Source: a virus
DNA: 64,000 nucleotides
Reading direction: 5' to 3' (one strand)
IMG/VR virus record: IMGVR_UViG_3300045988_147571
Shown here: one piece after another, positions 1,083-62,504 of the stretch
Layout of the letters: the number at the start of each line of letters is the position of its first letter
How positions within the stretch are numbered: position 1 is the first letter of the stretch
Made by a program: the position numbers and the translations under genes
The notes under the pieces: model-generated
Database searches by the model: none
What the model was told of the DNA's origin: nothing
What the model saw: the letters and a program-made list of their open reading frames with translations, nothing else

Positions 1083-1121
1083 TATTTATACTCCTCAGTT
1101 ATGCAAAAGAGGTGCTCAATT

Positions 1122-21331: not shown

Positions 21332-21340
21332 CACAGTTTG

Positions 21341-45800: not shown

Positions 45801-46778
45801 TTTGAATTTGATGCAGGAAATAATGTCAATGCTACTCTTGCTCAGTGCTTCCAAAGCGATGGTTCTAATGGATTCAGACTGTGGTATTCTCAAGAACCTA
45901 GATTTTCATGGAATACTGATAGTGTATCTCCTTCTGCTGGAACAAACAGAGAAATCGTAGTATTCCGTCATGAAGCTGGAAGTCAGAAGCTTTATGTGTA
46001 CAATTCAAACATGACTGGGAAAGAAGTATCTTCTACTACTCTGAATGCGATCAGGATTCCAGAGCATAGTTCCACTCTCGTATTTGGATGTTCTAAAGCT
46101 GACGACGGAGCATATGAAAACTTTGCAAAAGGCACTGTACATTGGGCTAAGGTTTGGTATGCGGATCTTGGTGAAGAACAATGTATGGATATTGCTTCTT
46201 GGATTCATGAAATTATTCCAATGGAAGTGGCTAAGTTTAAAGGATATTATCTGTCTGACGTTGCTTCAAAGAGAGCTAACATTACATTTGTTGCTTCTAA
46301 TCTACTTGGTACAGAAAAACCTTATAATAATAAGAGCACAAATGCAGGTGGATGGGCTGATTCTACATTGAATACTTGGCTGAATACCAGACTGCTTAAA
46401 GCGATCTCTCCTTTATGGAAAGCATTGATTAAACCAGTCAAAGTATACTCTTCTATCGGTAATAAATCCAATGACACATCTGTATCTAACTGTAGATTCT
46501 ATATTCCGTCTTTATATGAAGTTGATCCTACATCTGCTTCTGAACCATATATCTCTGAAACAAATGCTCCTATTGTTTATTTCACAGATGATGATACCAG
46601 AAAGAAAGCAAAATCTTCTGCTCCTACGGAGTATAAATCTTACTGGACCAGATCTCCGAATGCTACAGTTGCAAATTGGTTATATACAGTCAATGAAGCC
46701 GGTGGAACATATGGATTCTCTTATCCAGGACAGAATTCTGGAATCTTACTTATGTTCTCAATTTCAAGTGAGGGGTAA
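39888..46778 (+). CDS. giant multidomain baseplate / receptor-binding protein (2296 aa)
   Basis: Segments by eye: coiled-coil stalk; CotH-like segment (FYYLFTERHTMVDNRAKNTFWH..HWDLCMDYDNDTAMG, tentative); leucine-rich repeats (LERLNLENLPNLKKTIDLSNCKNLEEF..); two Listeria-Bacteroides-type repeats (YTFKGWNG.., YNLFKGWDKSG..); LamG-like region; DUF6273-like C-terminus (..GGWADSTLNTWLN..FYIPSLYEV..YWTRSP). Confidence 0.6.
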   Translation: MSFKDAKKLAAANSANTTLMTAELAAVTIDDDYTLCTDGRYEVYNKYSDDNFSSVDNLKNITVDSSQINIMQEENSQYMPFRIPRYWDGMDLMDMLIQVRYQSVAQSKGQIANVINVASSSTHITFGWLIDANVTASAGDIIFEITATGLNEKGKNYIWRTRPNGKFTVLEGLNYDGIIEPSDDWYTSFVNMVLGHVAEAKQYADEAKASAASINVDDIKADVTSSVTKNLNQTVAESLKDYYTKTEIDQTVNELNTAISSIDSLKNLKVEYDNTTGHLVFKDKEEQIGEITINSLSNLVVEYSVVNGKGSLVFKNGETEIQTVELSSIEPSAAWTSALKEDISKSTDEKLSPVVDRVSALETAKDDLAGKVETNTTDISGLKTDVAGLKESNETISATTTETKNTVDILKQNVSGYDSQFESINSDITAINESIKDLGKNTGHEYDVSYEENVFTLYEDDVIKKQFTITGGSGPSDTTTVTIERITSSDAIFLAGNSAVIEYNFTSVDNTGDTTGNGTATWRVGSTTVATTVAAQGKNSFDITQYLKNGANSIRLSITDSFGTIATKTWTITIVDFKIESIFDDTLFYSDEVTFRYTPYGDINKTVHFVLDEKEIAGVETTASGRQMTYTLAKQSHGAHLLKVYMTASINNQDVTSESVYKDIIWVEQGNTTPIIGCSMVEFTAKQYNTTSIKYVVYDPEHNPATVKLFVDGKVASTLTVGRTAQIWSYKSTEIGKQSLTISCRRITKILTATIEKLDINVSPVTTNLAFDFNPSGKNNGEADWLKINDNLTIEVSDNFDTTNGGYQVDEDGDTYFCVKAGTAATIPYQLFADDAKKTGKNFKFIYKCTNVKNYEAQVLSCFADNLGYTVKAQEATLKSEQNEISVPYCEDYYMELEFNILPDSEYTEMVMWVDGIPTRVKLYATSDSFTQTNPVGITIGSDDCDVIVYRIKAYTMNLTDDEILDNFIADAKNANEIINRYNRNDILDSSGGLDPDVLAEKCPDLRIIKLEVPVFTTGKKNKVPFTSVQQIYKNGRPVDNWISRDGIHNGQGTSSEYYGDSGRNLELNCKNGFTFANDTTADVYSMDENAIGINYFNVKVNIASSENINNAGLQGEYQEFNPYIRPARKKDPRVRDTMQFYPCVVFLKETDVDNAVEFKDGQWHFYAAGDIGNSKKNTVAQGMDPENHKEFIVEVSNNTDPQCRFLSDDLSNEEWGGDTSFEMRYQNPNCTKEEIQAGRQAWNDLLTWVVNADSETFVKEFEQHFIKDSLLFYYLFTERHTMVDNRAKNTFWHTEDLVHWDLCMDYDNDTAMGNDNEGGLTLTYGYEDTDTIGTKSVFNASDSKVFCYIRDYMFDDLQSMFLQMEAKLTWSANRILNKFETLQNYKPERLWIADMRRKYFRPYEDKGTTSYLEMMNGSKKQQRRQFQKYQEKYIASKYVGSTTTSDVITIRGYTPTNWTGVKPDGTFHIVPYADSYVDVRFGSNLVRQRAKRGQTYTVKSPIAAMNDTEVYVYNASLMQSIGDIAPFYPGYTNFNQGVKMTDILIGSDVEGYQNTNMNDFSIGQNVLLERLNLENLPNLKKTIDLSNCKNLEEFLAEGSGITGVIFAPGGKIETAHLPAIASLTGKNLYRLTDLTITSYANLTTLSLDNCNTLDAKDIINKATGLTRVRVTGINWELDDTTLLDRLAKMTGIDDNGYNSVHSVLIGTVHIPVMRQQRLDEFAELWPDLEITYDSIITQFKVTFVNDDEENTVLDIQYVDKGANAVDPITREIDPIPTPTKESTIKLDYTFKGWNGSLTGIFADRTIKAVYNSKVREYTVKYVSKGLTLQESTGQYGSYIKYEGDTPTYTAEESAYKYNLFKGWDKSGFVDGEKTINAVYETCEYVDGYFDGKDLSNMTQVELYTLMKMGLETKALSLKDTLDFKLGVDYSYGDIEEHEVISASTKFDGTNYIDTGLKIMEKDRDFTVAIDFEFDAGNNVNATLAQCFQSDGSNGFRLWYSQEPRFSWNTDSVSPSAGTNREIVVFRHEAGSQKLYVYNSNMTGKEVSSTTLNAIRIPEHSSTLVFGCSKADDGAYENFAKGTVHWAKVWYADLGEEQCMDIASWIHEIIPMEVAKFKGYYLSDVASKRANITFVASNLLGTEKPYNNKSTNAGGWADSTLNTWLNTRLLKAISPLWKALIKPVKVYSSIGNKSNDTSVSNCRFYIPSLYEVDPTSASEPYISETNAPIVYFTDDDTRKKAKSSAPTEYKSYWTRSPNATVANWLYTVNEAGGTYGFSYPGQNSGILLMFSISSEG

Positions 46779-49460: not shown

Positions 49461-52400
49461 ATGAAGCAACAATTTCTTGATCTTAATGGATTAACAGAAT
49501 TAGTTACATATTTAAAAAAGAGTATAACAGAACAAAAAGAAATACTTCCATATGCTTCCAATAAGCTGTTTCCTTCTACAGGTAATGTAAATACAATTTA
49601 CATAGATACAGCAACAAATATCATTTATCGTTGGGACTCATCGAACAAGAAATATGAAATATTGGCTAAAGCAGTGAAATCAGTATCTATCTCAGAAAGT
49701 ACTGAAAACGGAAAAATCACACTCACTGTAGATGGTAATAAAACTACTGTTCCTATTCATGGATTGGGATCTGCTGCATATACAAATTCAAGTGCTTACT
49801 CTCCTGCCGGGCATACTCATACAAAAGCTCAGGTGGGGCTTGGCAATGTAGATAATACTGCTGATGCTAATAAAAGTGTAAAACATGCAATTACTGCTGA
49901 TAGTGCAACTACTGCAGGAACAGCTACAAATGTATCCGCTGGAGAAGGTACTGCTGATGCAGCTAGACATGTTTGGTTTTCTGACTCTGCTACGGAGACA
50001 AAGCGAGCATACAGCAATAAGTTTAAATATAATCCTGTTACTAATAATCTGACGGTAAATGTTACAGGAAATGCTGCAACTGCAAGTAGTGTCGCATGGG
50101 GTAACGTTACAGGGAAACCTTCTACCTATGCTCCTTCTGCTCATAATCATGATGATTCTACTATCACTTCTCTCAATGCATCAAAGCTTTTTGGAACAAT
50201 TGACATAGCAAGACTTCCACATGGAGCATTAGAAAGATGTGTAATTGTTGCAGATGATACTGCGAGATTTGCTCTTACTACTGCTAAAATTCAACTTGGT
50301 GATACAGTCAAAGTAAATAAGACTCAGAAAATGTATTTTGTTATTGATGATAGTAAATTGAATTCTGAGGCTGGTTATACAGTTTATACTGCAGGATCTG
50401 CTACTTCTGTACCTTGGTCAGGTGTAACAGGAAAACCTACAACATTCACACCAAGTTCTCATACTCATCCATATCTTAGTGCTTTGAGTGTTTCTGGAAA
50501 AACTATTACTTATACAAAAGGTGATGGAACTACTGGGACTATTACTACGCAAGATACATGGAGAGGTATTCAGAATAATTTAACAAGTACAAGCACAACT
50601 GATTCTTTGAGTGCCGCTCAAGGTAAGATTTTGAAAGGATTAGTTGATGAAAAACTGTCATTGAGTGGTGGCACTATGACTGGAAATATTGCTTATAAAG
50701 GTTCTAAAGCTACTTATGAAATGATTAAATTCATAGATAATTCAAGTGATACATATGGTAATGGTATTGCTATTGGCGGCGGTGGTCTTACTATTATCGG
50801 AGGCGGAGAATCTTCTGATGTTATAAAAAATGCTGCCAGTAGTGGCGGGGAAGAGCGATTAGTTCTTGCAAATGATGGTGCAATTGAATTTTATACCAAT
50901 TGTCAGGATGGTATAGATAAATCTGTACATACAACCATTGATAATACTGGACTTTTTTCAGGTACTGCTGCCAATGCAAAAGCCGTACCATGGAGCGGAG
51001 TTACTGGAAAACCTACAAGTTATCCGCCAAGTAGTCATACTCATGCTTATTTGCCATTGTCTGGGGGAACTATGACTGGCGCTCTTAACTTCGCAAACGG
51101 CATTTGGAATGTAGTTGGCGATGATGTTGCGATCGGTGATATGAATATTAGTGGTACATTAGGTGTTATGGGTAAGAATGGTAATACAGCTATTAAATTG
51201 GTTCAATATGGTGCGTCTACAACATCTGGATCAGCTGCTCCTGGAGTCACATGGATTTGTACAGGTGCTAATGCTTCTACTATTTCTGGAACTTTGTCTG
51301 GTACATTTTCTGGTAATTTGAGTGGTACTGCTACTTCGGCTAACGCTGCTCCGTGGTCTGGTATTACGGGGAAACCAAGTACATATCCACCATCAAGTCA
51401 TACACATAATTACGCTGGCTCCTCTACAGCTGGTGGAATTGCTTATAATGCTAATGCACTATATAAAAATTCATCAACAAGACAAACTTCTGCAAATTAT
51501 GATTTAACAAACGATAATATTTATGCTCATAGGGTTACTTATTCTGTTGCTTCAAGCACTATGACAACAGCAAAACCACCTACTGATGCACATATCCTTA
51601 CATTTGGTTGGGACACTAATGCTGGTTACGGCGCACAGTTTGCAGTTGGTAATTCATTTTCAAACCATTTATATATTCGAGGAGCAAAATCTGAAACGAA
51701 AGATAACAAAAATGTATGTACGTGGGAATCTAGTTGGAGAACTGTTTTGGATTCTGGAAACTATACTTCATATACAGTTACAAAAACTGGTTCTGGTGCA
51801 TCTGGTACATGGGGAATTAATGTCTCTGGAGGCGCTGCTTATCCTACAGGTTTTAATTCAAGGGTTACTTCGGCTACTTGGGGAAATCAAACAGGTACTT
51901 TAATCACAGACTGGCATACAAGTAATGGTGGAGATATTCAATTTCGTGATAACAGTGGCCAGTTAAATGTAATTACCGATGGATTCTTTTACCAAAACGA
52001 AGGTAGAAATTTAGTTCTTGATTCATCGAATTATAGCAACTATGCTGCAACAAAAGGACATACGCATAACTATGCAGGATCAGCGTCAGCAGGTGGAAAT
52101 GCGAACGCAGCTGTAAAATTGGCTAATGCAAGAAAAATTGGTAATGCTTCATTCGATGGTACTGCTAATATTACCTTATCTCAGATGGGACTTAACGTTC
52201 CTGTTGAAATTACAAAAGCTGACTATCTTGCAAAAAAGAAAGCTGGAACTTTAAATGCAAATACCTATTACAATGTTATTGATGAATATGATTCTGCAAA
52301 TGTTATTAACGACTCATCTGTAACAGCCAACAGTGCATTTTCAAGTACTAAATCGGAAAAAACATATGCAAAGAAAAGCGCCATAATTAATACTACTCTT

Positions 52401-52643
52401 ACAGCTAGTAAATGGACTGGTTCCTCTGCCCCGTATACATATGTATTACCTGTATCTGGTGCAACTACTTCAAATATAGTAGAAATTAATTATGCTTCTA
52501 ATGCATCATCTCAAGCAATAGAGGCATATCAGAACGCTATGTTAGCAGATGGAGGACAGACTACAAATCAGATTACTATAAAAGCAACCGAGAAACCAAC
52601 TGTAGATATTCCTATTACTATTGTTATAAGAAATGATTTATAA
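49461..52643 (+). CDS. tail fibre protein with repeated GKP..PS.H.H motifs
   Basis: 1060 aa. Four copies of (W)(S)G(V/I)TGKP(S/T)x(Y/F)xPS(S/A)H(T/N)H, plus GHTHTK and GHTHNY. Fibre motif AVKLANARKIGNASFDGTANITL. Gly/Ser/Thr/Ala-rich. Confidence 0.7.
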   Translation: MKQQFLDLNGLTELVTYLKKSITEQKEILPYASNKLFPSTGNVNTIYIDTATNIIYRWDSSNKKYEILAKAVKSVSISESTENGKITLTVDGNKTTVPIHGLGSAAYTNSSAYSPAGHTHTKAQVGLGNVDNTADANKSVKHAITADSATTAGTATNVSAGEGTADAARHVWFSDSATETKRAYSNKFKYNPVTNNLTVNVTGNAATASSVAWGNVTGKPSTYAPSAHNHDDSTITSLNASKLFGTIDIARLPHGALERCVIVADDTARFALTTAKIQLGDTVKVNKTQKMYFVIDDSKLNSEAGYTVYTAGSATSVPWSGVTGKPTTFTPSSHTHPYLSALSVSGKTITYTKGDGTTGTITTQDTWRGIQNNLTSTSTTDSLSAAQGKILKGLVDEKLSLSGGTMTGNIAYKGSKATYEMIKFIDNSSDTYGNGIAIGGGGLTIIGGGESSDVIKNAASSGGEERLVLANDGAIEFYTNCQDGIDKSVHTTIDNTGLFSGTAANAKAVPWSGVTGKPTSYPPSSHTHAYLPLSGGTMTGALNFANGIWNVVGDDVAIGDMNISGTLGVMGKNGNTAIKLVQYGASTTSGSAAPGVTWICTGANASTISGTLSGTFSGNLSGTATSANAAPWSGITGKPSTYPPSSHTHNYAGSSTAGGIAYNANALYKNSSTRQTSANYDLTNDNIYAHRVTYSVASSTMTTAKPPTDAHILTFGWDTNAGYGAQFAVGNSFSNHLYIRGAKSETKDNKNVCTWESSWRTVLDSGNYTSYTVTKTGSGASGTWGINVSGGAAYPTGFNSRVTSATWGNQTGTLITDWHTSNGGDIQFRDNSGQLNVITDGFFYQNEGRNLVLDSSNYSNYAATKGHTHNYAGSASAGGNANAAVKLANARKIGNASFDGTANITLSQMGLNVPVEITKADYLAKKKAGTLNANTYYNVIDEYDSANVINDSSVTANSAFSSTKSEKTYAKKSAIINTTLTASKWTGSSAPYTYVLPVSGATTSNIVEINYASNASSQAIEAYQNAMLADGGQTTNQITIKATEKPTVDIPITIVIRNDL

Positions 52644-52658
52644 AAAGGAGGCGATAAC

Positions 52659-53201
52659 ATGGCAATTTACAAAGGTGAACAATGTCTTGCCGGAGTTGGT
52701 AAGAATGCAACTATTAAAATCGGTACTGCTAAAACAGGTACTTCAGCTGCAGTAACCAATTCTGGTACAGATACAGATGCAATATTAAATTTTACACTGC
52801 CCAAAGGTGATCAGGGAGTTGGAATTTCAAGTGTTATCCCTCATTATCTTGCAAGTCCTAAATCACAGGGAGTAACCAGATCAACTACTGGATGGGCGAC
52901 TTCCGCTCAGGTTATGACATCTACAAACAAATATTTGTGGTGCTATCATGAATTTGTTTTGACAAACAATAATCATTTGTACACTACTCCAACAGTTATA
53001 GGTGTTTATGGAGATAAAGGTGATCCGGGTACAACTGATTATAATGGATTACAGAATAAACCGGTCGTTAATGGAGCTGTAACTGCTTATCAGTCAGATA
53101 TTATGAAATCTCAGTTAAGAAATGTGACATTCTCTACTGAAGAACCTAAGACATCTGATGGTAAGCCTGGTGATATGTGGGTGGTGTATGTCGATGAGTA
53201 A
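52659..53201 (+). CDS. fibre adaptor-like protein
   Basis: 180 aa with GGAGG RBS. Its C-terminus KPGDMWVVYVDE parallels KNGDIWIVYDS of 55918..56196. Confidence 0.5.
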   Translation: MAIYKGEQCLAGVGKNATIKIGTAKTGTSAAVTNSGTDTDAILNFTLPKGDQGVGISSVIPHYLASPKSQGVTRSTTGWATSAQVMTSTNKYLWCYHEFVLTNNNHLYTTPTVIGVYGDKGDPGTTDYNGLQNKPVVNGAVTAYQSDIMKSQLRNVTFSTEEPKTSDGKPGDMWVVYVDE

Positions 53202-55902
53202 TATTAAAACTGGTGATATTTTAAACTTTGGTTATACTGGTGCTGTTCAGAGTGTAACATTGCCTAAAGGAACATATAAATTGGAGTGTTGGGGCGCTCA
53301 GGGTGGAAATAGCAATCAATCAAACGGAACTTATGGTAATGGTGGAAAAGGTGGATATTCTACTGGTATTTTAAATGTTTCAACTAATACCACTATATAT
53401 ATAACAGTAGGAGGGCAAGGTCAAAATGGTGCCCTTAATACTAGAACTGCTGGTGGTTTTAACGGTGGTGGTGATGGTTATGGTACTAACAACTCTGGCG
53501 TAGGTGGCGGAGGTGGTGGAGCTTCTGATATTTCTTTAATGCATCCTGTATTTTCACAGTCATCTTATTTTATAAATAAAATTCGAGATACAAACTCACT
53601 ATTAAGTAGAATTATCGTAGCAGGTGGCGGAGGATCTGCAGGATATGATGTTAGTAATAATGCAGCTAATGGTGGTGCTGGCGGAGGTACTACAGGACAA
53701 GATGGATTATCAAACCGCGTTTATCATGGCACTGGCGGAAAACAAACTACTTTTGGTACAGGAGGATCATCAGAGGAATCTAATAGGTATTCCGTCCAAG
53801 CTAAATTCGGATGTGGAGCATCAGCCAGTAATTCTACAGATGTAGCGCCTGGTGGAGGCGGTGGCTGGTATGGAGGTGGATTACATTGTGATTCTGCTGG
53901 TGGCGGTTCTGGTTATGTCTACACCTCTTCTACAGCCTCTAATTACCCATCAGGTTGTTTATTAAACTCTTCTTATTACTTAACCGATGCCAAAACCATA
54001 GCAGGCAATAATTCTTTTGTTTCTCCCACAGGTTCATCTGAAACCGGACACTCAGGCAATGGATATTGTCGAATTACTGTTATTAAATGTAAGAGTACTG
54101 CGCTATATACCAGAATAAATAATTCAATGAAAAAGGCTATTGCTTTTTATTTTAAATTAAATAATAACAAAATGTACGGTGTTGGTTCTGCTAATTTTAA
54201 TGGTACTGTTATGAATTTTGATTATACTGGTTCAGTTCAAACTGCTACATTGGCTCCTGGAACATATAAGTTAGAATGCTGGGGTGCTCAAGGCGGGAAT
54301 TGCTATTGGAGTAGCGTGGAACGCCCTGGAAGTTTAGGCGGGTATAGTTCGGGCATTTTAAAAATCACTTCTAAAACAAATTTATTTTGTTACGTTGGTG
54401 GCGCCGGTGAAAGACGGACAATTGTTTCGATGGGTGGTGGTGGCTTCAATGGTGGAGGTCATGCATATAGTTATACATCTTCTAATCCGTCAGGAGCTGG
54501 TGGAGGAGGTTCAGATATAAGGATTGGAACCGATTCTCTATATTCAAGAGTTATCGTAGCAGGTGGAGGAGGCGGAGCAGGATATGATAATTCTGGAAAT
54601 TATGGGTATGGTGGAGGAACAGTTGGGGGCACTCAAACTGTTAACAGTAATTCCGAACGACAGGCAAATGGTGGTTCTCAAACTAACGGTGGTATAAATA
54701 AATCTGGATATACTACTTCAGGAGCTTTTGGTGTCGGAGGAAATGGAACTCAACAATGGACTTCCGGCGGCGGTGGCGGCTGGTATGGAGGAGCTGGTTG
54801 TTACTGTGATTATGCTGGCGGAGGTTCAGGTTATGTATATACTTCATCTACAGCTAAAAACTATCCATCTGGATGTTTGTTAAACTCTTCTTACTATCTC
54901 ACTAATGCTTCTACTATTGCTGGCAACAAATCATTCCCTTCTCCTACAGGTTCTACAGAAACAGGACACTCAGGTAACGGCTATGTAAGAATCACTAAAT
55001 TAACAGATGTAATATATCTCACTCATGCTAATAACGACATAATGAATTTTGATTACACAGGTTCCACACAATCTAAAACTCTAAAACCAGGTACATATAC
55101 AATAGAATGCTGGGGTGGCCAAGGAGGAAGTTATAGTAGTTACATAGGCGGATACGGTGGTTATTCCAAAGGCACAATTACTCTTACTAAGGTGACTACT
55201 GTTTATGTGTCTGTTGGCGGAGCTGGATCTTCCTCTTCTACTACTGCAGGATTCAATGGTGGAGGAGCTGGTATTTCTTCTGGTAGAGGTGGCGGCGGCG
55301 CCACAGATGTTCGTATAGGTCAAAATTCTCTATATTCAAGAGTTATCGTGGCTGGGGGCGGAGGAGGCGCTGGAGTTACAGGTGCTAATGTTAATCCTTG
55401 TGGTTGTGGCGGTGGAGAATATGGTGGAGATGGCTATAATAATAATACCACTGGTTCCTATACTACTGGTCAAAACAGATCTGGTGGTAGCGCTTCTCAA
55501 ACTGCAGGTGGAATAACTTGGAATACAGGCGCTCAGGCTACTTTTGGTCAAGGCGGAAATGCTTCTGGCTACTCTTGTGGAGGAGGTGGTGGCGGCTGGT
55601 ACGGTGGAGGCGGTGCATATGATAGTGACTCTGACTCTGATGGACGTTGGGGTGGAGGTGGATCTGGATATGTTTATACCTCTTCTACAGCTAAAAATTA
55701 TCCTAACGGATGCCTACTCAATTCCACTTATTATTTAACGAATGCTCAAACAATAGCCGGAAACACTTCTTTCACTTCTCCTACAGGATCAGCAGAAACT
55801 GGACATACAGGTAACGGATTCTGCAGAATTACAAATTTGAACCCAACACAATATGGATTATACGTAAAAACTAACTCAGGTTGGAAACACATAGATTTAT
55901 AA
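53194..55902 (+). CDS. glycine-rich-domain protein (three tandem domains)
   Basis: Three copies of about 270-300 aa, each running from NF(G/D)YTG..Q..TL.PGTYKLECWGAQGG through GGFNGGG, GGGG(A)SD(I/V)R, VIVAGGGG and GGGGGWYGG to SGYVYTSSTA.NYPSGCLLNS.YYLT.A.TIAGN.SF.SPTGS.ETGH.GNG(Y/F)(C/V)RIT. ATG 53194 overlaps the upstream stop (ATGAGTAA). The ORF-track start is 53158. Confidence 0.7.
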   Translation: MSNIKTGDILNFGYTGAVQSVTLPKGTYKLECWGAQGGNSNQSNGTYGNGGKGGYSTGILNVSTNTTIYITVGGQGQNGALNTRTAGGFNGGGDGYGTNNSGVGGGGGGASDISLMHPVFSQSSYFINKIRDTNSLLSRIIVAGGGGSAGYDVSNNAANGGAGGGTTGQDGLSNRVYHGTGGKQTTFGTGGSSEESNRYSVQAKFGCGASASNSTDVAPGGGGGWYGGGLHCDSAGGGSGYVYTSSTASNYPSGCLLNSSYYLTDAKTIAGNNSFVSPTGSSETGHSGNGYCRITVIKCKSTALYTRINNSMKKAIAFYFKLNNNKMYGVGSANFNGTVMNFDYTGSVQTATLAPGTYKLECWGAQGGNCYWSSVERPGSLGGYSSGILKITSKTNLFCYVGGAGERRTIVSMGGGGFNGGGHAYSYTSSNPSGAGGGGSDIRIGTDSLYSRVIVAGGGGGAGYDNSGNYGYGGGTVGGTQTVNSNSERQANGGSQTNGGINKSGYTTSGAFGVGGNGTQQWTSGGGGGWYGGAGCYCDYAGGGSGYVYTSSTAKNYPSGCLLNSSYYLTNASTIAGNKSFPSPTGSTETGHSGNGYVRITKLTDVIYLTHANNDIMNFDYTGSTQSKTLKPGTYTIECWGGQGGSYSSYIGGYGGYSKGTITLTKVTTVYVSVGGAGSSSSTTAGFNGGGAGISSGRGGGGATDVRIGQNSLYSRVIVAGGGGGAGVTGANVNPCGCGGGEYGGDGYNNNTTGSYTTGQNRSGGSASQTAGGITWNTGAQATFGQGGNASGYSCGGGGGGWYGGGGAYDSDSDSDGRWGGGGSGYVYTSSTAKNYPNGCLLNSTYYLTNAQTIAGNTSFTSPTGSAETGHTGNGFCRITNLNPTQYGLYVKTNSGWKHIDL

Positions 55903-55917
55903 AAGGAGGGCTTAACT

Positions 55918-56196
55918 ATGCCAATTATATTTCATGGAACAGGTAGTGGCGGCTCTGCTAAAAAACTAAAAACCGCACGAACTATTAATGGTACGAATTT
56001 TGATGGTACAGCTAATATTACTACTTCTAGTTGGGGAACAACAAGAACCGTTACTGTAGGAAATACAAGTAAATCTGTAAATGGTTCTGGAAATGTAAGT
56101 TGGTCTATGGATGAAATAGGTATTCATGTGTCTAGTTCTGAGCCTACTGCTTCTCAGGGAAAGAATGGTGATATTTGGATTGTTTATGATAGTTAA
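55918..56196 (+). CDS. fibre adaptor-like protein
   Basis: 92 aa with GGAGG RBS. Carries the fibre motif KLKTARTINGTNFDGTANIT and the C-terminus KNGDIWIVYDS. Confidence 0.5.
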   Translation: MPIIFHGTGSGGSAKKLKTARTINGTNFDGTANITTSSWGTTRTVTVGNTSKSVNGSGNVSWSMDEIGIHVSSSEPTASQGKNGDIWIVYDS

Positions 56197-56207
56197 AAAT
56201 AGAAAGG

Positions 56208-58616
56208 ATGGTGAGAGTTATGGCTTGTAGTTCTGGATGCGGTACAAGTTGCTCTACGAATTGTTCTACTACTTCGTCTGGAAACTGCGGTGGATGTGGT
56301 ACTGCGTGTTCTACAAGTTGCCAAACCACTGCTAGTGGTCAAAGTTGTAGTGGATGTGGAACATTGTGCTCAAGTAGTTGTGGTGATAGTTGTCATGGCA
56401 CCTGTAGCGGTAGTTGCGTCGGTACTTGTAGTGATACCTGCACCGCTGGTTGTAACACTACTTGTTATTATACTTGCACCGGCACTTGTGATAGCACTTG
56501 TTCTGCAAGTTGCGCAAATGATTGTTCCGGTACTTGCTCAGGAGGCTGTCAAGGTTGTACTGCTTCATGTCAAAATGATTGTTCTGGTTGTTCTGGTTGC
56601 GGAGGATCTTGTTCACACAGCTGTTCAGGCGATTGCGAAGGCGGCTGTTACGGATCATGCAATACTACTTGTACCGCTGATTGTCAAAATGACTGTAGCT
56701 CTGGATGTAATGATGGATGTAAAGATTCTTGCAAAAACACTTGTAAAGATACATGTACCGGTACATGCGTAGGCGGATGCGGTGCTTCTTGTGATAATAC
56801 CTGTAACACTGGATGTGAAAACTCTTGTAGCTCTAATTGCACATCATTATGTAGCATAGCTGGTACTTATGGTGAATCAGAAACCAATATATTAAACTTT
56901 GATTACACTGGTGCTGTTCAGAGTGTAACATTGAAACCCGGGAGATATGTGCTTGAATGTTGGGGTGCTCAAGGTGGTAATGGATGTACGGGAAATTCAT
57001 ATAAAGGCGGTGCCGGAGGATATTCCAAAGGTACTCTCACACTAGCCAAAACAGAAACTTTATACATATATGTTGGTGGACAAGGAGTTAGCGCTGCAGC
57101 TTCTGGCAATGGAAATATTCGAGAAGGTGGATTCAACGGTGGTGGATCTGGACGTGATTGGGGTAGTACTGGTCATGGCGGTGGCGGAGGTGGTGGCGCC
57201 TCTGATATTCGAATTATAACTGATAGCTTCTATGCTCGTGTTATAGTCGCCGGCGCTGGTGGTGGAGCTTCTGATAATGGAGCAGGCGGTGCTGGCGGCG
57301 GCACTTCTGGGATTTCATCATCCTCTTCCGCTGGAACAGCAACTGGAGGCAGCGGTTTTGGTCAAGCGGCGGCATCAAGTTGCACTTCCTATGAATGTGG
57401 TGGCGGTGGCGGTGGCTGGTATGGCGGCTATGGCGGATCTTCAGAAAACTATCCTGGCGGTGGTGGATCAGGTTACGTATATACATCTTCTTCTGCTTCT
57501 AACTACCCTTCTGGGTGTCTCTTAAATTCTTCATACTATCTCACCGATGCTCAAACCATTGCAGGAAATCAAACTTTTAAATCACCTACCAATACAAATG
57601 AAACGGGTCATTATGGTAATGGCTATTGTCGAATTACATGTTATGTTCCTAAGAAATCATATTTCTGCAAAGTGGGTAATACTATAAAACAATCTCCTGT
57701 TGTAATTGCAAAAGCAAATAATAAATTATTCGACACAGGAGCCGCAGTAATGAATCTTAGTTATACAGGAACTTCTCAAAATGTAGTCCTTCCAGCAGGT
57801 ACGTATAAATTTGAATGCTGGGGAGCACAGGGAGGTTATAGATCATCTTCTACTTATGGCGGTAAAGGTGGTTACTCCGTCGGAACTATTACGCTTACAC
57901 AAACAACTAATCTATTTGTATATGTTGGAGGTTCAGGTAACTCTGCTACTGCTTATACTAATGGTATATATGCTGGTGGATTTAACGGCGGTGGTTATAG
58001 ATATGGATATAAAGGTGGCGGTGGTGCTACTGATATTCGTATTGGTAAAGATGATCTTTATGCAAGAATAATTGTTGCAGGCGGTGGAGGTTCTGATGGT
58101 GCTAGTAATAAAACAGGTATGTATGGTGGAGGACTCGAAGGTGGAACTACTACTGAAAGTTGTGGTTCTGGTGGATATGGAGGAACACAAACAGGAAATA
58201 CGTGGCTAACTACTACTCGAACCACTTCTGCTACATCTACTTCTAACTGTTATGCTGGATTTGGATTCGGCGGAAATGGATGTTATAGTTCTTCTGGCTA
58301 TGCAGGTGCTGGCGGTGGAGGCTGGTATGGAGGTTCCGGTTCATATCCAGATGGCTCTGGCGATGATGACAGAGGAGGAGGCGGCGGCTCAGGTTATGTT
58401 TACACTGCAAAAACTGCTGCAAATTATCCTTCTGGAAATTACGTCAACTCTTCTTATTATCTCACTGACGCTTCCACTGTCGCAGGAAATCAATCATTTA
58501 CTGCTCCAGATGGATCAACTGAAACTGGTCATTCCGGTGATGGATTTTGTCGTATTACAAGGCTCAAAAATGCGACAGTATATGTAAAACAAAATAATGT
58601 ATGGATCAAGAGCTAA
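56208..58616 (+). CDS. CXXX-repeat / glycine-rich-domain fusion protein (virion fibre-like)
   Basis: The N-terminal ~215 aa are Cys-tetrad repeats. Two glycine-rich domains of the type in 53194..55902 follow. ATG 56220 is better spaced from AAAGGA/GGTGAG than the ORF-track ATG 56208. Confidence 0.7.
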   Translation: MVRVMACSSGCGTSCSTNCSTTSSGNCGGCGTACSTSCQTTASGQSCSGCGTLCSSSCGDSCHGTCSGSCVGTCSDTCTAGCNTTCYYTCTGTCDSTCSASCANDCSGTCSGGCQGCTASCQNDCSGCSGCGGSCSHSCSGDCEGGCYGSCNTTCTADCQNDCSSGCNDGCKDSCKNTCKDTCTGTCVGGCGASCDNTCNTGCENSCSSNCTSLCSIAGTYGESETNILNFDYTGAVQSVTLKPGRYVLECWGAQGGNGCTGNSYKGGAGGYSKGTLTLAKTETLYIYVGGQGVSAAASGNGNIREGGFNGGGSGRDWGSTGHGGGGGGGASDIRIITDSFYARVIVAGAGGGASDNGAGGAGGGTSGISSSSSAGTATGGSGFGQAAASSCTSYECGGGGGGWYGGYGGSSENYPGGGGSGYVYTSSSASNYPSGCLLNSSYYLTDAQTIAGNQTFKSPTNTNETGHYGNGYCRITCYVPKKSYFCKVGNTIKQSPVVIAKANNKLFDTGAAVMNLSYTGTSQNVVLPAGTYKFECWGAQGGYRSSSTYGGKGGYSVGTITLTQTTNLFVYVGGSGNSATAYTNGIYAGGFNGGGYRYGYKGGGGATDIRIGKDDLYARIIVAGGGGSDGASNKTGMYGGGLEGGTTTESCGSGGYGGTQTGNTWLTTTRTTSATSTSNCYAGFGFGGNGCYSSSGYAGAGGGGWYGGSGSYPDGSGDDDRGGGGGSGYVYTAKTAANYPSGNYVNSSYYLTDASTVAGNQSFTAPDGSTETGHSGDGFCRITRLKNATVYVKQNNVWIKS
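56226..56852 (+). repeat. coding tandem repeat: (C-x3)n, 52 Cys in about 209 codons
   Basis: Hand count gives 52 Cys, with 44 of 51 Cys-Cys spacings exactly CxxxC. The other residues are almost all G/S/T/N/D/A. Confidence 0.9.
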
Positions 58617-58635
58617 GGAAACTTAGCTCTTATTT
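58608..58635 (+). terminator. intrinsic terminator
   Basis: 10-bp stem AAGAGCTAAG/CTTAGCTCTT with loop GAAA. Overlaps the stop codon. Confidence 0.55.
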
Positions 58636-58654
58636 AAATTAAGGAGGATTTTCT

Positions 58655-59026
58655 ATGAAACTTATTTTAAAAGACAATACTGAAATTACAGTAACTCGTA
58701 TGAACAATACTTATGCATACGAAAATTTCGTAGATGGTATGGGTTATGACATGAATAAAAATATTTCTGCAAGTTTTACTATTTTCGACTCCGATAAAAG
58801 CTTTGAAGAATTAAAAACTATTTTATCAGGAGAAAATAGAGAAGGATTTAGACTTGCTTATGGCGTAACAGAAAAAGATTTCCCAGGAATGAAAATCGAA
58901 TCTATTTCTGAGGATATTGCCAATGATAGAAGTATTATCACAATTTCTATGAATGGAACTAAAGTAGAAGAAAAAACAGAGAACTCAGCTACAGATGCTG
59001 AAAAAGATACAAATAAAGAAGTTTAA
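58655..59026 (+). CDS. hypothetical protein (first gene of the maturase unit)
   Basis: 123-aa ORF with AAGGAGG RBS. No motif recognised. Confidence 0.5.
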   Translation: MKLILKDNTEITVTRMNNTYAYENFVDGMGYDMNKNISASFTIFDSDKSFEELKTILSGENREGFRLAYGVTEKDFPGMKIESISEDIANDRSIITISMNGTKVEEKTENSATDAEKDTNKEV

Positions 59027-59060
59027 TTAGTCAACAAAGGATAGAAAGGAATAAACAGAT

Positions 59061-59390
59061 ATGAGAAGAATTATTGTAAAAATTGATCGTGACAAAGCAG
59101 TTGAACTTGAAAGAGTTAACTTTGAATTAAGTTTTACAAAGGATGTTATACAAAGACTTATTGAGTCCCATCCGAATGATACAGAGCTTATTAATGGAGA
59201 AGTATTCCAGAAATATAATCGTCAGGGCGCAGAACTTCAGGCTAAATACTCTCTCCTTGCTGCCGAAATTGAAAGAGAATATATCCCTGAGAAATTAAAA
59301 GGTCATAAGTATACATGGAATATTCCTAATGGTACAAATGACTTTATAATTGATATTCAGTGTAATTGTGAAATCGAGGGAATTGAATGA
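59061..59390 (+). CDS. candidate CXXX-repeat modification system accessory protein
   Basis: 109-aa helical ORF whose stop overlaps the radical SAM start (ATGA). The call rests on context only. Confidence 0.4.
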   Translation: MRRIIVKIDRDKAVELERVNFELSFTKDVIQRLIESHPNDTELINGEVFQKYNRQGAELQAKYSLLAAEIEREYIPEKLKGHKYTWNIPNGTNDFIIDIQCNCEIEGIE

Positions 59391-60721
59391 GAAAACATGA
59401 ACAATATTCTGATCAGATAGCTAGGTTGTATCCGCCAGAGAAGCCTGAGACCGATGACGGACAACGAATTTTAACTCAAAGCGTTACTTTTCAAGTAACT
59501 GATGATTGCAATCTCGCATGCAAATATTGTTATCAAACCTGCAGAAATAAGCGTTCGATGTCATTTGAAACTGCAAAGAAATTTGCTGATTTAATTATTT
59601 CAGGAGATAAAGGCTTTTCTAAGTATATCAACCCAGAGAAATCTCCAGGATTAGTTGTGGATTTTATTGGAGGAGAACCTTTTCTTGAAATAGAATTGAT
59701 TGACCAGATTTGCACATATATCATGGATCGATTGATAGAACTTGATCATCCATGGGCCATGAAAACTAAATTTTCTATATGTTCTAATGGTACTCTTTAT
59801 AGAGAACCTAAAGTGCAGGATTTCTTACGTAAATGGGCCAATAGATTATCTTTTTCAGTCACTATAGATGGTAACAAGGAATTACATGATTCTTGTAGAG
59901 TATTCCCTGATGGAAGTCCAAGTTATGATCTTGCAGTTGATGCAGCTACAGACTGGATGAAAAAAGGTTATTATATGGGAAGTAAGATTACTATAGCTCC
60001 TGGCAATATAAGTTATCTTTATGATGCAATAGTTCATATGACAGAACTTGGCTATAATGAAATTAATGCTAACTGTGTATTTGAAGAGGGATGGACTACT
60101 ATGCATGCTACTGTTCTTTATGATCAAATGAAACGTATATCTGATTATTTCTTAGAAAAAGATTATGATTTCGAACATGACTTTTTCTGCTCTTTATATA
60201 ATGATGATTTCTTTAAACCAAAAGATGTGGCAGAGATTCAAAATTGGTGCGGTGGGACAGGTTCCGCTATGATTTCATGTGATCCTGATGGACATATTTT
60301 TCCTTGCATCAGATATATGGAATCTTCTCTTAATGGACAACAAGAACCTTATTCTATTGGAGATGTAGATAATGGGATAGGCTACTGTGATTGTTATAAA
60401 TGCAGACTTAATTGCCTTAATTCTATTGATCGTAGAACTCAGAGTACAGATGAGTGCTTCTACTGCCCTATTGCAGAAGGCTGTGCATGGTGTTCAGCTT
60501 ACAACTATCAAGTATTTGGAACTCCGGATAAAAGAGCGACATTTATCTGTGTTATGCACAAAGCTCGTGCTTTAGGTAATTATTACTTCTGGAATAAATA
60601 TTATAGAAAACATGATCTGAAAAAACGTATGGAGATTTTTGTGCCTGATGAATGGGCACTTGAGATTATCTCTGAATCAGAACTTAATATGTTGAAAGAA
60701 TTGGAAAGAGAGGACGATTAG
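59387..60721 (+). CDS. radical SAM / SPASM-domain maturase
   Basis: CNLACKYC (CxxxCxxC), GGEPF, and C-terminal auxiliary-cluster motifs WCGGTGS..CDPDGHIFPC and CFYCPIAEGCAWC. 444 aa. Confidence 0.85.
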   Translation: MRKHEQYSDQIARLYPPEKPETDDGQRILTQSVTFQVTDDCNLACKYCYQTCRNKRSMSFETAKKFADLIISGDKGFSKYINPEKSPGLVVDFIGGEPFLEIELIDQICTYIMDRLIELDHPWAMKTKFSICSNGTLYREPKVQDFLRKWANRLSFSVTIDGNKELHDSCRVFPDGSPSYDLAVDAATDWMKKGYYMGSKITIAPGNISYLYDAIVHMTELGYNEINANCVFEEGWTTMHATVLYDQMKRISDYFLEKDYDFEHDFFCSLYNDDFFKPKDVAEIQNWCGGTGSAMISCDPDGHIFPCIRYMESSLNGQQEPYSIGDVDNGIGYCDCYKCRLNCLNSIDRRTQSTDECFYCPIAEGCAWCSAYNYQVFGTPDKRATFICVMHKARALGNYYFWNKYYRKHDLKKRMEIFVPDEWALEIISESELNMLKELEREDD

Positions 60722-60735
60722 TCCTCTCTCTTTTT
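60707..60735 (+). terminator. intrinsic terminator
   Basis: 9-bp stem AGAGAGGAC/GTCCTCTCT with a 5-nt loop, followed by CTTTTT. Overlaps the stop codon. Confidence 0.6.
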
Positions 60736-60821: not shown

Positions 60822-62504
60822 ATGACAGAAATCAAAGGTATTGATGTTTCCCGTTGGAACGGAACAATTGATTGGAAAACTGTTGCTAATTATGGCATGG
60901 GCTTTGCTATCCTAAGAATCACAGAAAAAGGAAATATTGTTGATAGCACATTCGAACCAAACTACAAAGGCTGCATTGAGAATAAGATTCCTGTTGGAGT
61001 CTATAAATACAGCTATGCTACTACTATTGCTCAGATTGAAGATGAAGCAAATGTAGTTATTAAAACATTGAATAAAAGAAAACTGGATTATCCAGTATTT
61101 CTTGATATAGAGGATAAATGTCAGGAGAATTTATCTGACAGTTTAATGATGAAAATGATTGAAACGTTTAGAGCTATTATTGTCAAAGCTGGATATAAAT
61201 TTGGTATTTATTGCGGTTATTCTTGGTATCAGAACCAGTTACCAGAGGGCGCGAAAAAGTACGATTGCTGGGTTGCTCGATATCCTAATAATGATACCGG
61301 TGAATTACAGGAAAGATTAAGAGTTCCTGCTTCTACTGGTGTTATTGGATGGCAATATTCTAGTAAGGCAACCATTCCTGGAATGCCAACAAAAACCGAT
61401 CGAAGTGTATTCTATAAAGACTATTCTAAATCTTCTACTACTTCTACAAACTCTCCCAAACCAACAACTACACAAGGAAGTGATGCTATGAACAAAGAAA
61501 AGGCTATTGATGCTCTTATTGCTTGCGCTGAAAATGAGGTTGGATATTTAGAAAAGAAATCTAACTCTCAGCTTGATGATAAGACTGCAAATGCGGGTTA
61601 TAATAACTATACTAAGTACTGGAGAGACGTATATCCAGAATATCAGGGACAGGCATGGTGTGCTGCATTTGTGAGCTGGTGTATGATGAAAACATTCGGT
61701 CTTGAGACAGCTAAAAAGCTCCTTAAACATTGGCCTTATGTATATTGTCCTACTCTTGGAAATCTCTTTACAAAGTATGCAAATCCACAGCGAGGAGATA
61801 TTGTAATCTTCTATCGTAATGGCACATTTACACATACAGGATTAGTTACTAAAGTTGAAGGGGATAAGTTCTACACAATTGAAGGTAATACCTCAGGAGG
61901 ATCTTCTATCGTTCCAAATGGTGGTGGAGTTTATGCAAAATCTTATTATAATTCAAATCTTCCAGGCACTAAATTCTGTCGTCCAGACTATTCTATTGTC
62001 AAATCTATCCTGACATCTAATGCCTCTTCTACACCATCTCCTGCACCCGTACAGCCATCTTATACAGCATGGGTAGGTTCTTGTACAACTAATGGAACAG
62101 ACGTGTTCTCAGACGCTACAGGAGCATCTAAACTAAATATATATCCCAAACTTAATGCAGGTAATCTTGTAGACATCATCGGTGAATCTGGCACAAGATA
62201 TCAGGTTCGTATTGCTGCAAAATATGTTGGTTATGTAGAGAAATCTAACATTAAAAATCCTGCTGCAACAACTACAAAGAAATATCCATTTGTAGGAAAA
62301 GTAACGGCAAATAAATTGAATGTTCGTAAGAAAGCTGGTACTGAACATCCATTACTTCCAGAGTATCCGCAGCTAAATAAAGACAATCTTATTAATGTCC
62401 TTGGAGTTACAAAAGATACTAAAGGTGACAGATGGTATAAAGTATCAATCACAAAAAAAGAATACATCGGCTATGTGTCAGCCAAGTATATTACTAAAGC
62501 ATAA
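60822..62504 (+). CDS. endolysin: GH25 muramidase + CHAP + SH3b-like repeats
   Basis: The N-terminus GIDVSRWNGTIDWKTV..FAILRI is typical of GH25. A Ser/Thr/Pro linker follows. CHAP motifs are GQAWCAAFVSWC and FTHTGLV..EGNT. Two C-terminal SH3b-like segments. AAGGAGG RBS. Confidence 0.8.
   Translation: MTEIKGIDVSRWNGTIDWKTVANYGMGFAILRITEKGNIVDSTFEPNYKGCIENKIPVGVYKYSYATTIAQIEDEANVVIKTLNKRKLDYPVFLDIEDKCQENLSDSLMMKMIETFRAIIVKAGYKFGIYCGYSWYQNQLPEGAKKYDCWVARYPNNDTGELQERLRVPASTGVIGWQYSSKATIPGMPTKTDRSVFYKDYSKSSTTSTNSPKPTTTQGSDAMNKEKAIDALIACAENEVGYLEKKSNSQLDDKTANAGYNNYTKYWRDVYPEYQGQAWCAAFVSWCMMKTFGLETAKKLLKHWPYVYCPTLGNLFTKYANPQRGDIVIFYRNGTFTHTGLVTKVEGDKFYTIEGNTSGGSSIVPNGGGVYAKSYYNSNLPGTKFCRPDYSIVKSILTSNASSTPSPAPVQPSYTAWVGSCTTNGTDVFSDATGASKLNIYPKLNAGNLVDIIGESGTRYQVRIAAKYVGYVEKSNIKNPAATTTKKYPFVGKVTANKLNVRKKAGTEHPLLPEYPQLNKDNLINVLGVTKDTKGDRWYKVSITKKEYIGYVSAKYITKA

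Follow-up and report, generated by a model that had tools for sequence, protein, structure and literature searches.

The analysed stretch of DNA, referred to here as the window, comprises 64,000 nt of the IMG/VR virus record IMGVR_UViG_3300045988_147571, and all coordinates refer to it. Along the window, tape-measure-like sequences (17079-19640 and 21338-30013) are followed by a gene for a fibre-repeat protein (49461-52643), by genes for proteins with glycine-rich domains (GRDs), by a cassette that contains a cysteine-array gene and a radical SAM gene, and by an endolysin gene of a type that suggests a Gram-positive host (Table 1). The array gene is found where a tail-fibre gene is expected, distal to the tape-measure and fibre genes and before the endolysin gene. 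Directly upstream of it lies the gene for the 92-aa protein, an orthologue of which is found in the same place in a related contig (L001).

Table 1. Coordinates of the cysteine-array gene, its parts and the neighbouring features in the window.
Feature	Position	Strand	Remarks
Paralogous fibre-type protein, three GRDs, no Cys array	53158..55902	+	PF12810 x3, E 1.8e-153
92-aa protein with tail-fibre N-terminal-type motif	55918..56196	+	PHROG tail-fibre families, E 5e-12 to 1e-6
Array-GRD-GRD gene	56220..58616	+	798 aa from ATG 56220; mechanical ORF start 56208
(C-x3)n array	56226..56852	+	52 Cys, 44/51 spacings i+4; predicted maturase substrate region
Fast-turnover array interior	56400..56580	+	From alignment with L009
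GRD 1 (ALK/LTK GRD type)	56886..57641	+	phrog_1589 at residues 227-478; one of 2 PF12810 stretches
GRD 2 (ALK/LTK GRD type)	57780..58562	+	Best PF12810 stretch, residues 525-785, profile 2-242 of 243
123-aa accessory protein	58655..59026	+	Family found beside maturase (either side)
109-aa accessory protein	59061..59390	+	Stop overlaps maturase start (ATGA)
Radical SAM/SPASM maturase, TIGR04115	59387..60721	+	533.3 bits, cutoff 350, E 3.5e-160
Terminator-like hairpin	60707..60729	+	Ends cassette, just ahead of endolysin gene; consensus scan only
Endolysin GH25-CHAP-SH3	60822..62504	+	Pfam and PHROG; end of tail module

Translation of the array gene probably starts at the ATG at 56220 (MACSSGC...) rather than at 56208. 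The later start is backed by its RBS and start context and by the MACS N terminus of the orthologues and of a stand-alone array protein (L004); the longer motif MACSxGCGTSC is kept in relatives with a maturase that is just 67% identical. Counted from this start, the array begins at residue 3 of the protein, and no leader precedes it. The array had been described in the first-pass annotation as fused directly to two glycine-rich domains, and Pfam searches bore this out, with PF12810 matched twice (E 2.5e-97). Both GRDs are putative receptor-binding domains.

Cysteine makes up 52 of the 209 residues encoded by 56226-56852 (+), of which the array sequence quoted in the first-pass annotation is an exact translation, and a recount on this translation returned the same figures as the earlier count by hand, with 44 of 51 Cys-Cys spacings having exactly three residues between the cysteines. 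The remaining spacings are i+3 (five cases), 8 (one) and 9 (one). When the same 209 residues were shuffled 100,000 times, i+4 spacings averaged 5.4 and reached a maximum of 18. The filler consists chiefly of S (40), G (34), T (31), N (13), D (12) and A (8), with hydrophobic residues nearly absent, in agreement with the earlier description of a small or polar filler without a hydrophobic core. Gly is tolerated at every filler position of the units, whereas D or E is found in 14 of 52 units and D, E or N in 21 of 52. The reading frame is taken to be real because it runs without a stop into the two PF12810 domains and because the Cys columns are invariant in the orthologues; a wrong-frame artefact as the origin of the array was rejected on these grounds. 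The V/L-rich ORFs found over the array in alternative frames, such as one of 160 aa at 56290-56772 (+), are the artefacts that had been anticipated from the repeat. In two relatives (L002 and L003), public gene callers have annotated this wrong V/L-rich frame. Recent tandem amplification of the DNA was also rejected, as TRF reported just three short patches and the filler residues have no higher-order period. No tRNA genes were found in the 64-kb window, including any phage tRNA-Cys that could serve a Cys-rich gene.

For the array, an AlphaFold model based on 59 homologues reached a pLDDT of 50 and a pTM of 0.28 and thus offers no usable structure. This low confidence is consistent with the earlier claim that the array is incapable of a normal globular fold, but falls short of proving it. 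A chain with 25% Cys, a small polar filler, no hydrophobic core and, as an apo chain, no confident fold could be a metallothionein-like rod, in which free thiols would bind Zn, Fe, Cu or Fe-S while the radical SAM gene acts elsewhere. However, the regular i+4 spacing, the lack of C-x-C and the presence of only five C-x-x-C motifs are unlike metallothioneins or ferredoxins. The array had no metallothionein match in Pfam or NCBIfam, and the surveyed flanks contained no metal-handling genes. The metal- or cluster-binding rod proposed in the first-pass annotation found no support. As the array is moreover coupled to its maturase in ~100 loci from different phage types, and the curated family of the enzyme is defined by a CXXX target, a metal-binding rod is considered very improbable.

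Among the orthologues, the Cys columns are invariant while the fillers vary, and most indels correspond to one or two 4-residue units. Such invariant columns and unit-sized indels suggest that selection acts on the Cys register. In the alignment with a close relative (L009; maturase 99% identical), a gapped stretch at ~56352-56582 has 48-71 matches per 90 columns, compared with 79-90 in most other 90-column windows of 55918-59390. In the protein alignment with the same relative, whole units are replaced in the array interior.

The start of the maturase gene lies 771 nt beyond the end of the array gene on the same strand. Its product matched TIGR04115, the "radical SAM peptide maturase, CXXX-repeat target family", across the complete profile (1-359 of 359). 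The radical SAM motif CX3CX2C is formed by C41, C45 and C48 and the SPASM set by C288-x13-G302-x4-C307, C357-x2-C360-x5-C366-x2-C369 and C388, and the cysteines of both are invariant in nine homologues of 57-81% identity. The next-best models were those for PapB, the SCIFF maturase, QhpD and CcpM. With 170.4 bits, the match to the PapB family model NF047865 is far under the cutoff of 340, and the enzyme is therefore not a PapB orthologue; the SCIFF maturase and QhpD models scored 98 bits (cutoff 425) and 97 bits (cutoff 453), respectively. The closest solved structure is that of CteB (5WGG), to which the maturase can be aligned over residues 27-375 (93-424 in CteB) with an E value of 3e-19. 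As this alignment starts at CteB residue 93, the N-terminal domain of CteB has no counterpart in the maturase, which also lacks the N-terminal region of the QhpD and CcpM models. The first ~92 residues of CteB are its substrate-recognition domain, which the maturase lacks.

All of the best-scoring characterised relatives (PapB with 170 bits, the SCIFF maturase and QhpD with ~97 bits) are thioether formers, and models for anaerobic sulfatase maturases matched far more weakly, at 38 bits. These scores speak against the same enzyme carrying out some other chemistry on the same substrate, be it sactionine-type links to alpha carbons, epimerisation or an oxidation of Cys that yields a dehydro or formylglycine-type residue, and such an alternative is regarded as unlikely. 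In its favour, the sulfatase maturase models do match, albeit weakly, and Gly, which has an alpha carbon only, is accepted at all filler positions. PapB, moreover, alternates between the alpha and the beta carbon according to its substrate (PMC12373016). Searches of the literature for the CXXX-repeat family, for its accessions or for radical SAM together with tail fibre returned nothing relevant, and no published characterisation of the family was found.

Two small ORFs separate the array gene from the maturase gene. The 123-aa protein had no match in Pfam, NCBIfam, PHROG or PDB, and iteration of a local HMM placed its family in 75 loci, including 23 of the 61 genome loci. A local HMM placed the family of the 109-aa protein in 103 loci, among them 48 of the 61 genome loci, and its gene is nearly always the one immediately before the maturase gene. 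The AlphaFold model of the 109-aa protein (pLDDT 91) consists of a strand, a long helical hairpin and two strands, for which there was no PDB profile match and no significant PDB fold match (Foldseek best E 0.34). An assignment of this ORF as a stand-alone PqqD-like RRE, in place of the one that the maturase lacks, was not supported, since the matches, with a best E of 0.34, cover the helical hairpin only.

The repeat and the enzyme already form a curated database family, represented by TIGR04114, TIGR04115 and PF27846, and the array has the tandem Cys-Xaa-Xaa-Xaa periodicity of TIGR04114 and PF27846. When the array was searched as three ~71-aa pieces, these scored 23.1, 33.3 and 26.6 bits with the 18-residue TIGR04114 model (Cys-rich CXXX repeat), for which the cutoff is 20. 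The same search with the whole protein or with its 221-aa N terminus gave no match, probably because of composition-bias correction. PF27846 is recorded, faintly, on the L001 orthologue and on ~50 of the 59 array homologues. Both the curated family and the tail-fibre-module setting of all its members had been overlooked in the first-pass annotation. Among the loci examined, the clade of gut-phage contigs (up to 177 kb) to which the window belongs was alone in having the array-GRD-GRD architecture. In many relatives the array forms a small stand-alone protein of 150-400 aa, and in others it is accompanied by a partner domain of ~100 aa, located on either side of the array depending on the relative; none of the ORFs in the window contains this domain. 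No cultured phage in the phage collection carries the system, where homologues were confined to two unannotated human-faecal metagenomic records.

In each of the 44 viral loci that extend far enough upstream, an array ORF precedes the maturase, and in 57 of 61 genome loci one was found within ~3 kb of it. The maturase and the array are coupled in ~100 independent loci across different phage types. With a TIGR04115 gene 0.8 kb downstream of the array and co-occurrence on this scale, the suggestion in the first-pass annotation that the array is a maturase substrate has gained strong genomic support. In 40 prophage loci, the families found ahead of the cassette were Baseplate_J (18), YQBQ (14), Mu Gp48 (7), Tail_P2_I (6) and Phage_tail_fib (4), and the ORFs downstream of the cassette in prophages encode endolysins. 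One locus (L136) has Tail_P2_I, three small ORFs, a protein that combines a collagen-like segment with a CXXX array (P0194), the radical SAM gene and then sheath and tube genes, which puts the collagen-CXXX gene roughly at the place of the fibre gene in P2 phages. The whole CXXX/maturase family sits in phage tail-fibre modules, and in dozens of prophages and gut-phage contigs the cassette has baseplate genes on one side and lysis genes on the other.

The maturase falls within a clade of RiPP maturases and many of the relatives are small stand-alone array proteins, as might be expected if the array were a RiPP-like precursor that, once modified, is cut away from the GRDs and leaves the cell by secretion or at lysis, to act for instance as a bacteriocin or signal. 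Such a product is, however, hard to reconcile with the lack of a leader, with a cassette embedded in a tail module, with the fusion of arrays to domains of the fibre type, collagen-like repeats and GRDs among them, or with arrays of 52-96 Cys, which far exceed any known RiPP core. Neither a C39 peptidase nor an ABC exporter was among the 25 commonest Pfam families in the flanks, as surveyed in a limited sample of + strand ORFs only, 141 from upstream and 78 from downstream, and no protease or exporter gene was found in the window between 53158 and 63373. A released product is the least probable of the explanations considered. Judged by its genes, the system does not appear to be a classical RiPP, given an array that starts at residue 3, a partner domain on a variable side, a maturase without an N-terminal recognition region, a product of ~800 aa and sampled ORFs without a protease or exporter.

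The loci come nearly all from anaerobic Bacillota, and cultured carriers of the cassette include Eubacterium pyruvativorans i6, Anaerolentibacter hominis CSJ-1, Neglectibacter timonensis SN17 and Desnuesiella massiliensis mt10. This host range bears on the possibility of a disulfide ladder, in which thiols left free inside the cell would be oxidised after lysis, with the maturase making a few priming links or none. Thin solenoids laddered by Cys exist in the antifreeze proteins of beetles, where Cys recurs at every sixth residue and the T/S/N/G/C composition is similar. Nevertheless, the hosts here are strict anaerobes of reducing habitats, a dedicated maturase is conserved, and i/i+4 pairs along one chain would appear ill-placed for a regular ladder, all of which makes disulfides a highly doubtful explanation.

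The array is best explained as the substrate of the TIGR04115 enzyme, with its cysteines turned into thioether crosslinks and the product serving as a stalk on a phage fibre, a reading of the gene content to which a probability of about 0.6 is assigned. On this reading, a late protein of the tail-fibre module, built as (CXXX)52, GRD, GRD, would have the array as its N-terminal module, and the array would be modified by the radical SAM/SPASM enzyme, whose gene belongs to the same co-directional block, probably with the help of the two small accessory proteins. By analogy, many of the 52 thiols are predicted to become thioether crosslinks, either within one chain or between fibre chains. Crosslinking of this kind would make a covalently laddered rod of a sequence without a core, and the rod would present the two glycine-rich domains on the virion. 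Thioethers arise in a reducing cytoplasm and, unlike disulfides, outlast a reducing gut, in keeping with a system confined to phages of strict anaerobes. Against this explanation, the N terminus of a fibre usually serves as its virion anchor, and here it is occupied by the Cys array. We infer from homology to PapB and CteB that the links are thioethers, and the modification itself, though very probable, and its acceptor residues are likewise predictions; the presence of the protein in the virion is proposed from gene position only. The more general proposal, that fibres of anaerobe phages are matured by a RiPP-type radical SAM enzyme acting on a whole structural protein with a leaderless array of 50-100 Cys to give dozens of thioether staples, within chains or between them, and a redox-proof stalk, is a tentative one, put at somewhat under even odds.

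The CXXX-repeat/radical SAM pair is presumed in databases to be a peptide natural-product system and is here placed in a phage tail-module cassette. Leaderless, full-size fibre substrates would shift radical SAM peptide chemistry from secondary metabolism to virion assembly and would point to a possible route by which phages of anaerobes stabilise extracellular fibres where disulfides are useless. If the general proposal above is true, the array protein would be the first known case of a virion protein that depends on a radical SAM maturase, and no other substrate of these enzymes would come near its number of crosslinks. The two accessory proteins of the cassette are previously undescribed. 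A leader-independent enzyme acting on maybe ~50 sites per chain would also be attractive for protein stapling, as in the engineering of PapB.

Of the known systems, the one described by TIGR04115 and TIGR04114 is matched by a maturase with a full score, by array pieces above the cutoff and by the adjacency of enzyme and target that its definition calls for. Typical TIGR04114 targets have 150-500 aa, made up of an array with or without a ~100-aa partner domain, whereas the protein of ~800 aa described here has its array fused to two GRDs of the ALK/LTK type. Collagen-like Gly-X-Y fibre stalks and crosslinked thin solenoids offer a functional analogy only, in that a short-period repeat of small residues lies between an anchor and a receptor-binding domain; neither is related to the array in sequence. 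In one relative (P0194, above) a collagen-like segment and the array type occur together. QhpD is a radical SAM/SPASM enzyme whose protein substrate receives several intramolecular thioethers at Cys and is retained in a larger assembly instead of being secreted. This substrate, QhpC, however, has a handful of crosslinks, no periodic array and no viral origin, and the QhpD model scores well below its cutoff. In CteB, the SCIFF maturase, the radical SAM core and the SPASM domain align with the maturase, but SCIFF peptides have ~45 aa and 6 Cys compared with 52 Cys in the array. The closest characterised model is PapB with its substrate PapA (freyrasin, a ranthipeptide from Paenibacillus polymyxa), which repeats C-x3-acceptor and acquires one thioether per Cys. 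PapB introduces six thioethers into repeated CXXXD motifs, and the Cys is bound by auxiliary cluster 1 (PMC12373016). There are 6 motifs in PapA, preceded by a leader and with Asp at i+4, whereas the array has 52 Cys, no leader and Cys at i+4. PapB also needs an acidic acceptor and, with so few acidic units and with Gly occurring at each of the filler positions, chemistry of the PapB type cannot link every Cys of the array at one fixed position. PapB, CteB and QhpD all create a bond between the sulfur of a Cys and a carbon in a different residue.

Translation of 56226-56852 (+) reproduced the array sequence quoted in the first-pass annotation, and its counts of 52 cysteines in 209 residues, with 44 of the 51 spacings at i+4, were recovered by direct counting on the translation; the remaining seven comprise five i+3 spacings and single spacings of 8 and 9. 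Shuffling the same residues 100,000 times gave a mean of 5.4 i+4 spacings and a maximum of 18. The filler is small or polar, as had been described (S40, G34, T31, N13, D12, and A8), with hydrophobics nearly absent. Fusion to two glycine-rich domains (GRDs) is borne out by the frame, which runs stop-free into two PF12810 (ALK/LTK glycine-rich domain) units (Pfam, E 2.5e-97). Across orthologues, protein alignment showed that all Cys columns are kept while the filler varies, and indels are mostly one or two 4-residue units long. The frame is taken as genuine because of this stop-free continuation, the kept Cys columns and the unit-sized indels, and the alignments show the Cys register to be under selection. 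A recent DNA tandem repeat was ruled out as the origin of the array by tandem-repeat analysis, and no higher-order period was found in the filler residues. The mechanical ORF start lies at 56208, but RBS context and an N-terminus (MACSxGCGTSC...SGxCGG) common to relatives, among them a stand-alone protein of 261 aa from a locus with just 67% maturase identity, point to ATG 56220 as the true start, so that the array begins at residue 3.

The spurious alternative-frame ORFs noted over the array are present in the ORF list of the window, and public gene callers picked such ORFs in two relatives (L002 and L003). Gene calls over CXXX arrays are often in a V/L-rich alternative frame or on the opposite strand (L002 6742-7440; L003 4364-5062; L006 8907-9665; L007 2357-3187). 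Since miscalled frames split or hide real array genes, database counts of CXXX proteins are too low.

The window carries a phage structural module that opens with the large terminase, continues with tape-measure-like and fibre proteins and closes with an endolysin, whose domain composition suggests a Gram-positive host.

Features around the Cys array, in window coordinates
Feature	Position
Three-GRD paralogue without array	53158-55902
92-aa protein, tail-fibre N-terminal-type motif	55918-56196
Array-GRD-GRD gene	56220-58616
123-aa ORF	58655-59026
109-aa ORF, stop overlapping start of maturase	59061-59390
444-aa radical SAM protein (maturase)	59387-60721
Terminator-like hairpin	60707-60729
Endolysin, GH25-CHAP-SH3 type	60822-62504

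Elsewhere in the window, terminase PHROGs cover only residues ~80-470 of the 1021-aa large-terminase ORF (1101-4166), the rest of which may be an insertion (intein?) or a fused domain. Three giant tail-module ORFs (21338-30013, 2891 aa; 31016-37168, 2050 aa; 39888-46778, 2296 aa) had no matches beyond weak ones to tape-measure or tail-fibre proteins and others to families without a known function.

The maturase scored 533.3 bits against NCBIfam TIGR04115 (cutoff 350), the family of radical SAM peptide maturases with CXXX-repeat targets, and the next models, PapB (170), SCIFF maturase (98), QhpD (97), and CcpM (96), all fell below their own cutoffs. Its CX3CX2C motif (C41/C45/C48) and complete SPASM cysteine set are invariant in nine homologues. 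The nearest solved structure is CteB (5WGG), to residues 93-424 of which residues 27-375 align; the N-terminal region carried by the CteB, QhpD, and CcpM models is absent. The whole array protein had no match in NCBIfam, but three ~71-aa pieces of the array scored 23.1, 33.3, and 26.6 bits against the CXXX repeat model TIGR04114 (cutoff 20), and the corresponding PF27846 is recorded for the L001 orthologue (faintly) and for ~50 of the 59 array homologues that a protein-database search found. On these scores and records, maturase and array are filed as members of the TIGR04114/TIGR04115 system. More than 3,800 database relatives of the maturase were found at E below 1e-20. Many close homologues are 570-780 aa long (P0003, P0006, P0011, P0014, P0024-P0029, and others), and the long ones bear the intein/homing-endonuclease domains PF14890, PF05203, PF14528, and PF07591, which marks the gene as one that inteins often target in these phages; no intein interrupts the window copy.

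An array ORF lies upstream of the maturase in 44 of 47 IMG/VR loci fetched by maturase, the other three being short loci with ~2 kb or less of upstream sequence. Among 61 genome loci (maturase identity at least 39%), 57 have an array of 8-96 Cys within ~3 kb. Given this co-occurrence with a TIGR04115 enzyme, the maturase-substrate or thioether-stalk option is the best supported of the three offered in the first-pass annotation, with the thioether chemistry itself drawn by analogy; a metal- or cluster-binding rod was not supported. We put the probability that the array is the substrate of the maturase at roughly 85%.

The array-GRD-GRD fusion is kept in the window's own clade (maturases 81-99% identical, gut-phage contigs up to 177 kb). 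Elsewhere the array stands by itself; follows a ~100-180-aa domain and 'SSSCRGACTGLC'; precedes a ~100-aa domain; or precedes a pair of peptidoglycan-binding domains plus a glycine-zipper segment. The ~100-aa partner domain is the same domain on whichever side of the array it lies (reciprocal HMM matches 1e-8 to 1e-11), which makes the array a portable module and means that enzyme recognition cannot rest on a fixed-side leader; an HMM search found no such domain in the window. One 920-aa ORF (L113 10008-12767) has a cell-wall-directed architecture rather than that of a fibre: its N-terminal 91-Cys array is followed by two PG_binding_1 domains and an fn3-like segment, with a hydrophobic glycine-zipper segment at the C-terminus. 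Two further array proteins (P0153 and P0155) begin with a signal resembling the twin-arginine type ('SRREFFKKAAKGLLP') and a lipoprotein-type Cys, and carry an unrelated middle domain; they may represent an exported, non-phage context of the repeat.

Hosts of the genome loci are nearly all anaerobic Bacillota (Lachnospiraceae, Oscillospiraceae, Eubacteriales, Christensenella, Vallitalea, and Desulfosporosinus), with additionally one Methanobrevibacter MAG (L092; maturase homologue 48% identical, adjoining array of 59 Cys) and one Treponemataceae MAG (L076; 54%, 88 Cys). These archaeal and spirochaete occurrences would mean that the host range is wider, unless they are artefacts of binning.

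A Pfam scan of 141 ORFs upstream of the cassette at 40 genome loci was dominated by Baseplate_J (18), YQBQ-like (14), Mu Gp48 (7), Tail_P2_I (6), LysM (6), Phage_tail_fib (4), and Mtd_N (2), and the 78 downstream ORFs gave the endolysin domains Amidase_2 (7), GH25 (4), Amidase_3 (3), and PG_binding_1 (4), as well as reverse transcriptase (3). Neither C39 peptidase nor ABC exporter was among the listed families of the ORFs sampled beside the cassette. In three related loci (L004-L006) the order is Baseplate_J, Gp48, tail-collar fibre, a 200-aa protein, two CXXX proteins, the homologue of the 109-aa protein and the maturase. In a P2-like tail cluster (L136), Tail_P2_I is followed, after three small ORFs, by a protein that combines collagen-like and CXXX segments (P0194), at about the fibre-gene site of P2 phages; next come an ORF of 240 aa and a radical SAM gene, and then sheath and tube. 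Judged by these flanking families and gene orders, the CXXX/radical SAM family is not a gene cluster for a secreted peptide but a cassette belonging to the tail-fibre module of anaerobes' phages and prophages. From gene position alone, the array-GRD-GRD protein is judged a probable virion (fibre) component. RVT_1 reverse transcriptase genes occur a few kb downstream of the cassette (L004-L006 14795-16108; L057 12830-14104; two further loci) and in several prophages adjoin a 760-aa protein, a pairing that looks like a diversity-generating retroelement within the fibre module; no such gene turned up in the window.

The window was aligned over 55918-59390 with L009, a relative with 99% maturase identity, and scored per 90 columns. 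Most 90-column windows had 79-90 matches, many of them 88-90. The array interior (~56352-56582) is gapped, with 48-71 matches, whereas both array ends are identical. The stand-alone L004 protein, though distant, keeps these ends too, and they would be the likeliest elements for recognition or docking. A second divergent patch in GRD1 (57212-57300, 67/90 matches) may be a receptor-specificity hotspot.

Among the 61 genome loci, the 109-aa family lies beside the maturase 48 times and the 123-aa family 23 times, a distribution that shows both to be co-inherited with it. The 109-aa protein is modelled (pLDDT 91) as a long antiparallel helical hairpin preceded by one strand and followed by two. Foldseek against the PDB matched the hairpin alone (best E 0.34) and a profile search of PDB sequences was empty, so a role as in-trans PqqD-like recognition domain for the maturase was not supported. 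No relatives of the 123-aa protein were detected outside CXXX/radical SAM cassettes (Pfam, NCBIfam, PHROG, and PDB). The array model from 59 homologues (pLDDT 50, pTM 0.28) is consistent with, though short of proof for, a chain without an autonomous fold.

Judged from its nearest characterised relatives, the maturase would link Cys sulfur to carbons of other residues, and the crosslinked array would form a covalently laddered stalk bearing two GRDs. That the modification is mainly thioether crosslinking is slightly favoured by this analogy. A reducing cytoplasm permits thioether formation, and thioethers would last in a reducing habitat, which would explain the confinement of the system to phages of anaerobes. 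PapB forms six thioethers across repeated CXXXD motifs; the donor Cys binds auxiliary cluster 1, and the acceptor lies on its C-terminal side (PMC12373016). Because only 14 of the 52 array units contain D or E (21 with D, E or N) and Gly is admitted at every filler position, fixed-position chemistry of the PapB type cannot account for all of the Cys; the acceptors may be of mixed kinds, may be alpha carbons or may lie on a neighbouring chain.

A literature search found no publications on the CXXX-repeat family, its phage association or its chemistry, and homologues in the phage collection were limited to two unannotated faecal-metagenome records. The enzyme-target pair is already catalogued, as a database-defined, uncharacterised system of presumed chemistry. 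Its working likeness is to PapB/PapA and QhpD/QhpC, in which a radical SAM/SPASM enzyme makes multiple Cys thioethers, as would the window system; scores below all three cutoffs show that the maturase is not itself PapB, SCIFF or QhpD. The array has no leader, the maturase no RRE domain and the ORFs sampled no protease or exporter genes, which separates the system from classical RiPPs. New with respect to these systems, and relevant to RiPP and radical SAM enzymology and to phage structure, are the leaderless, protein-scale candidate substrate fused to glycine-rich adhesin-type domains and the placement of the whole CXXX-repeat family in tail-fibre modules.
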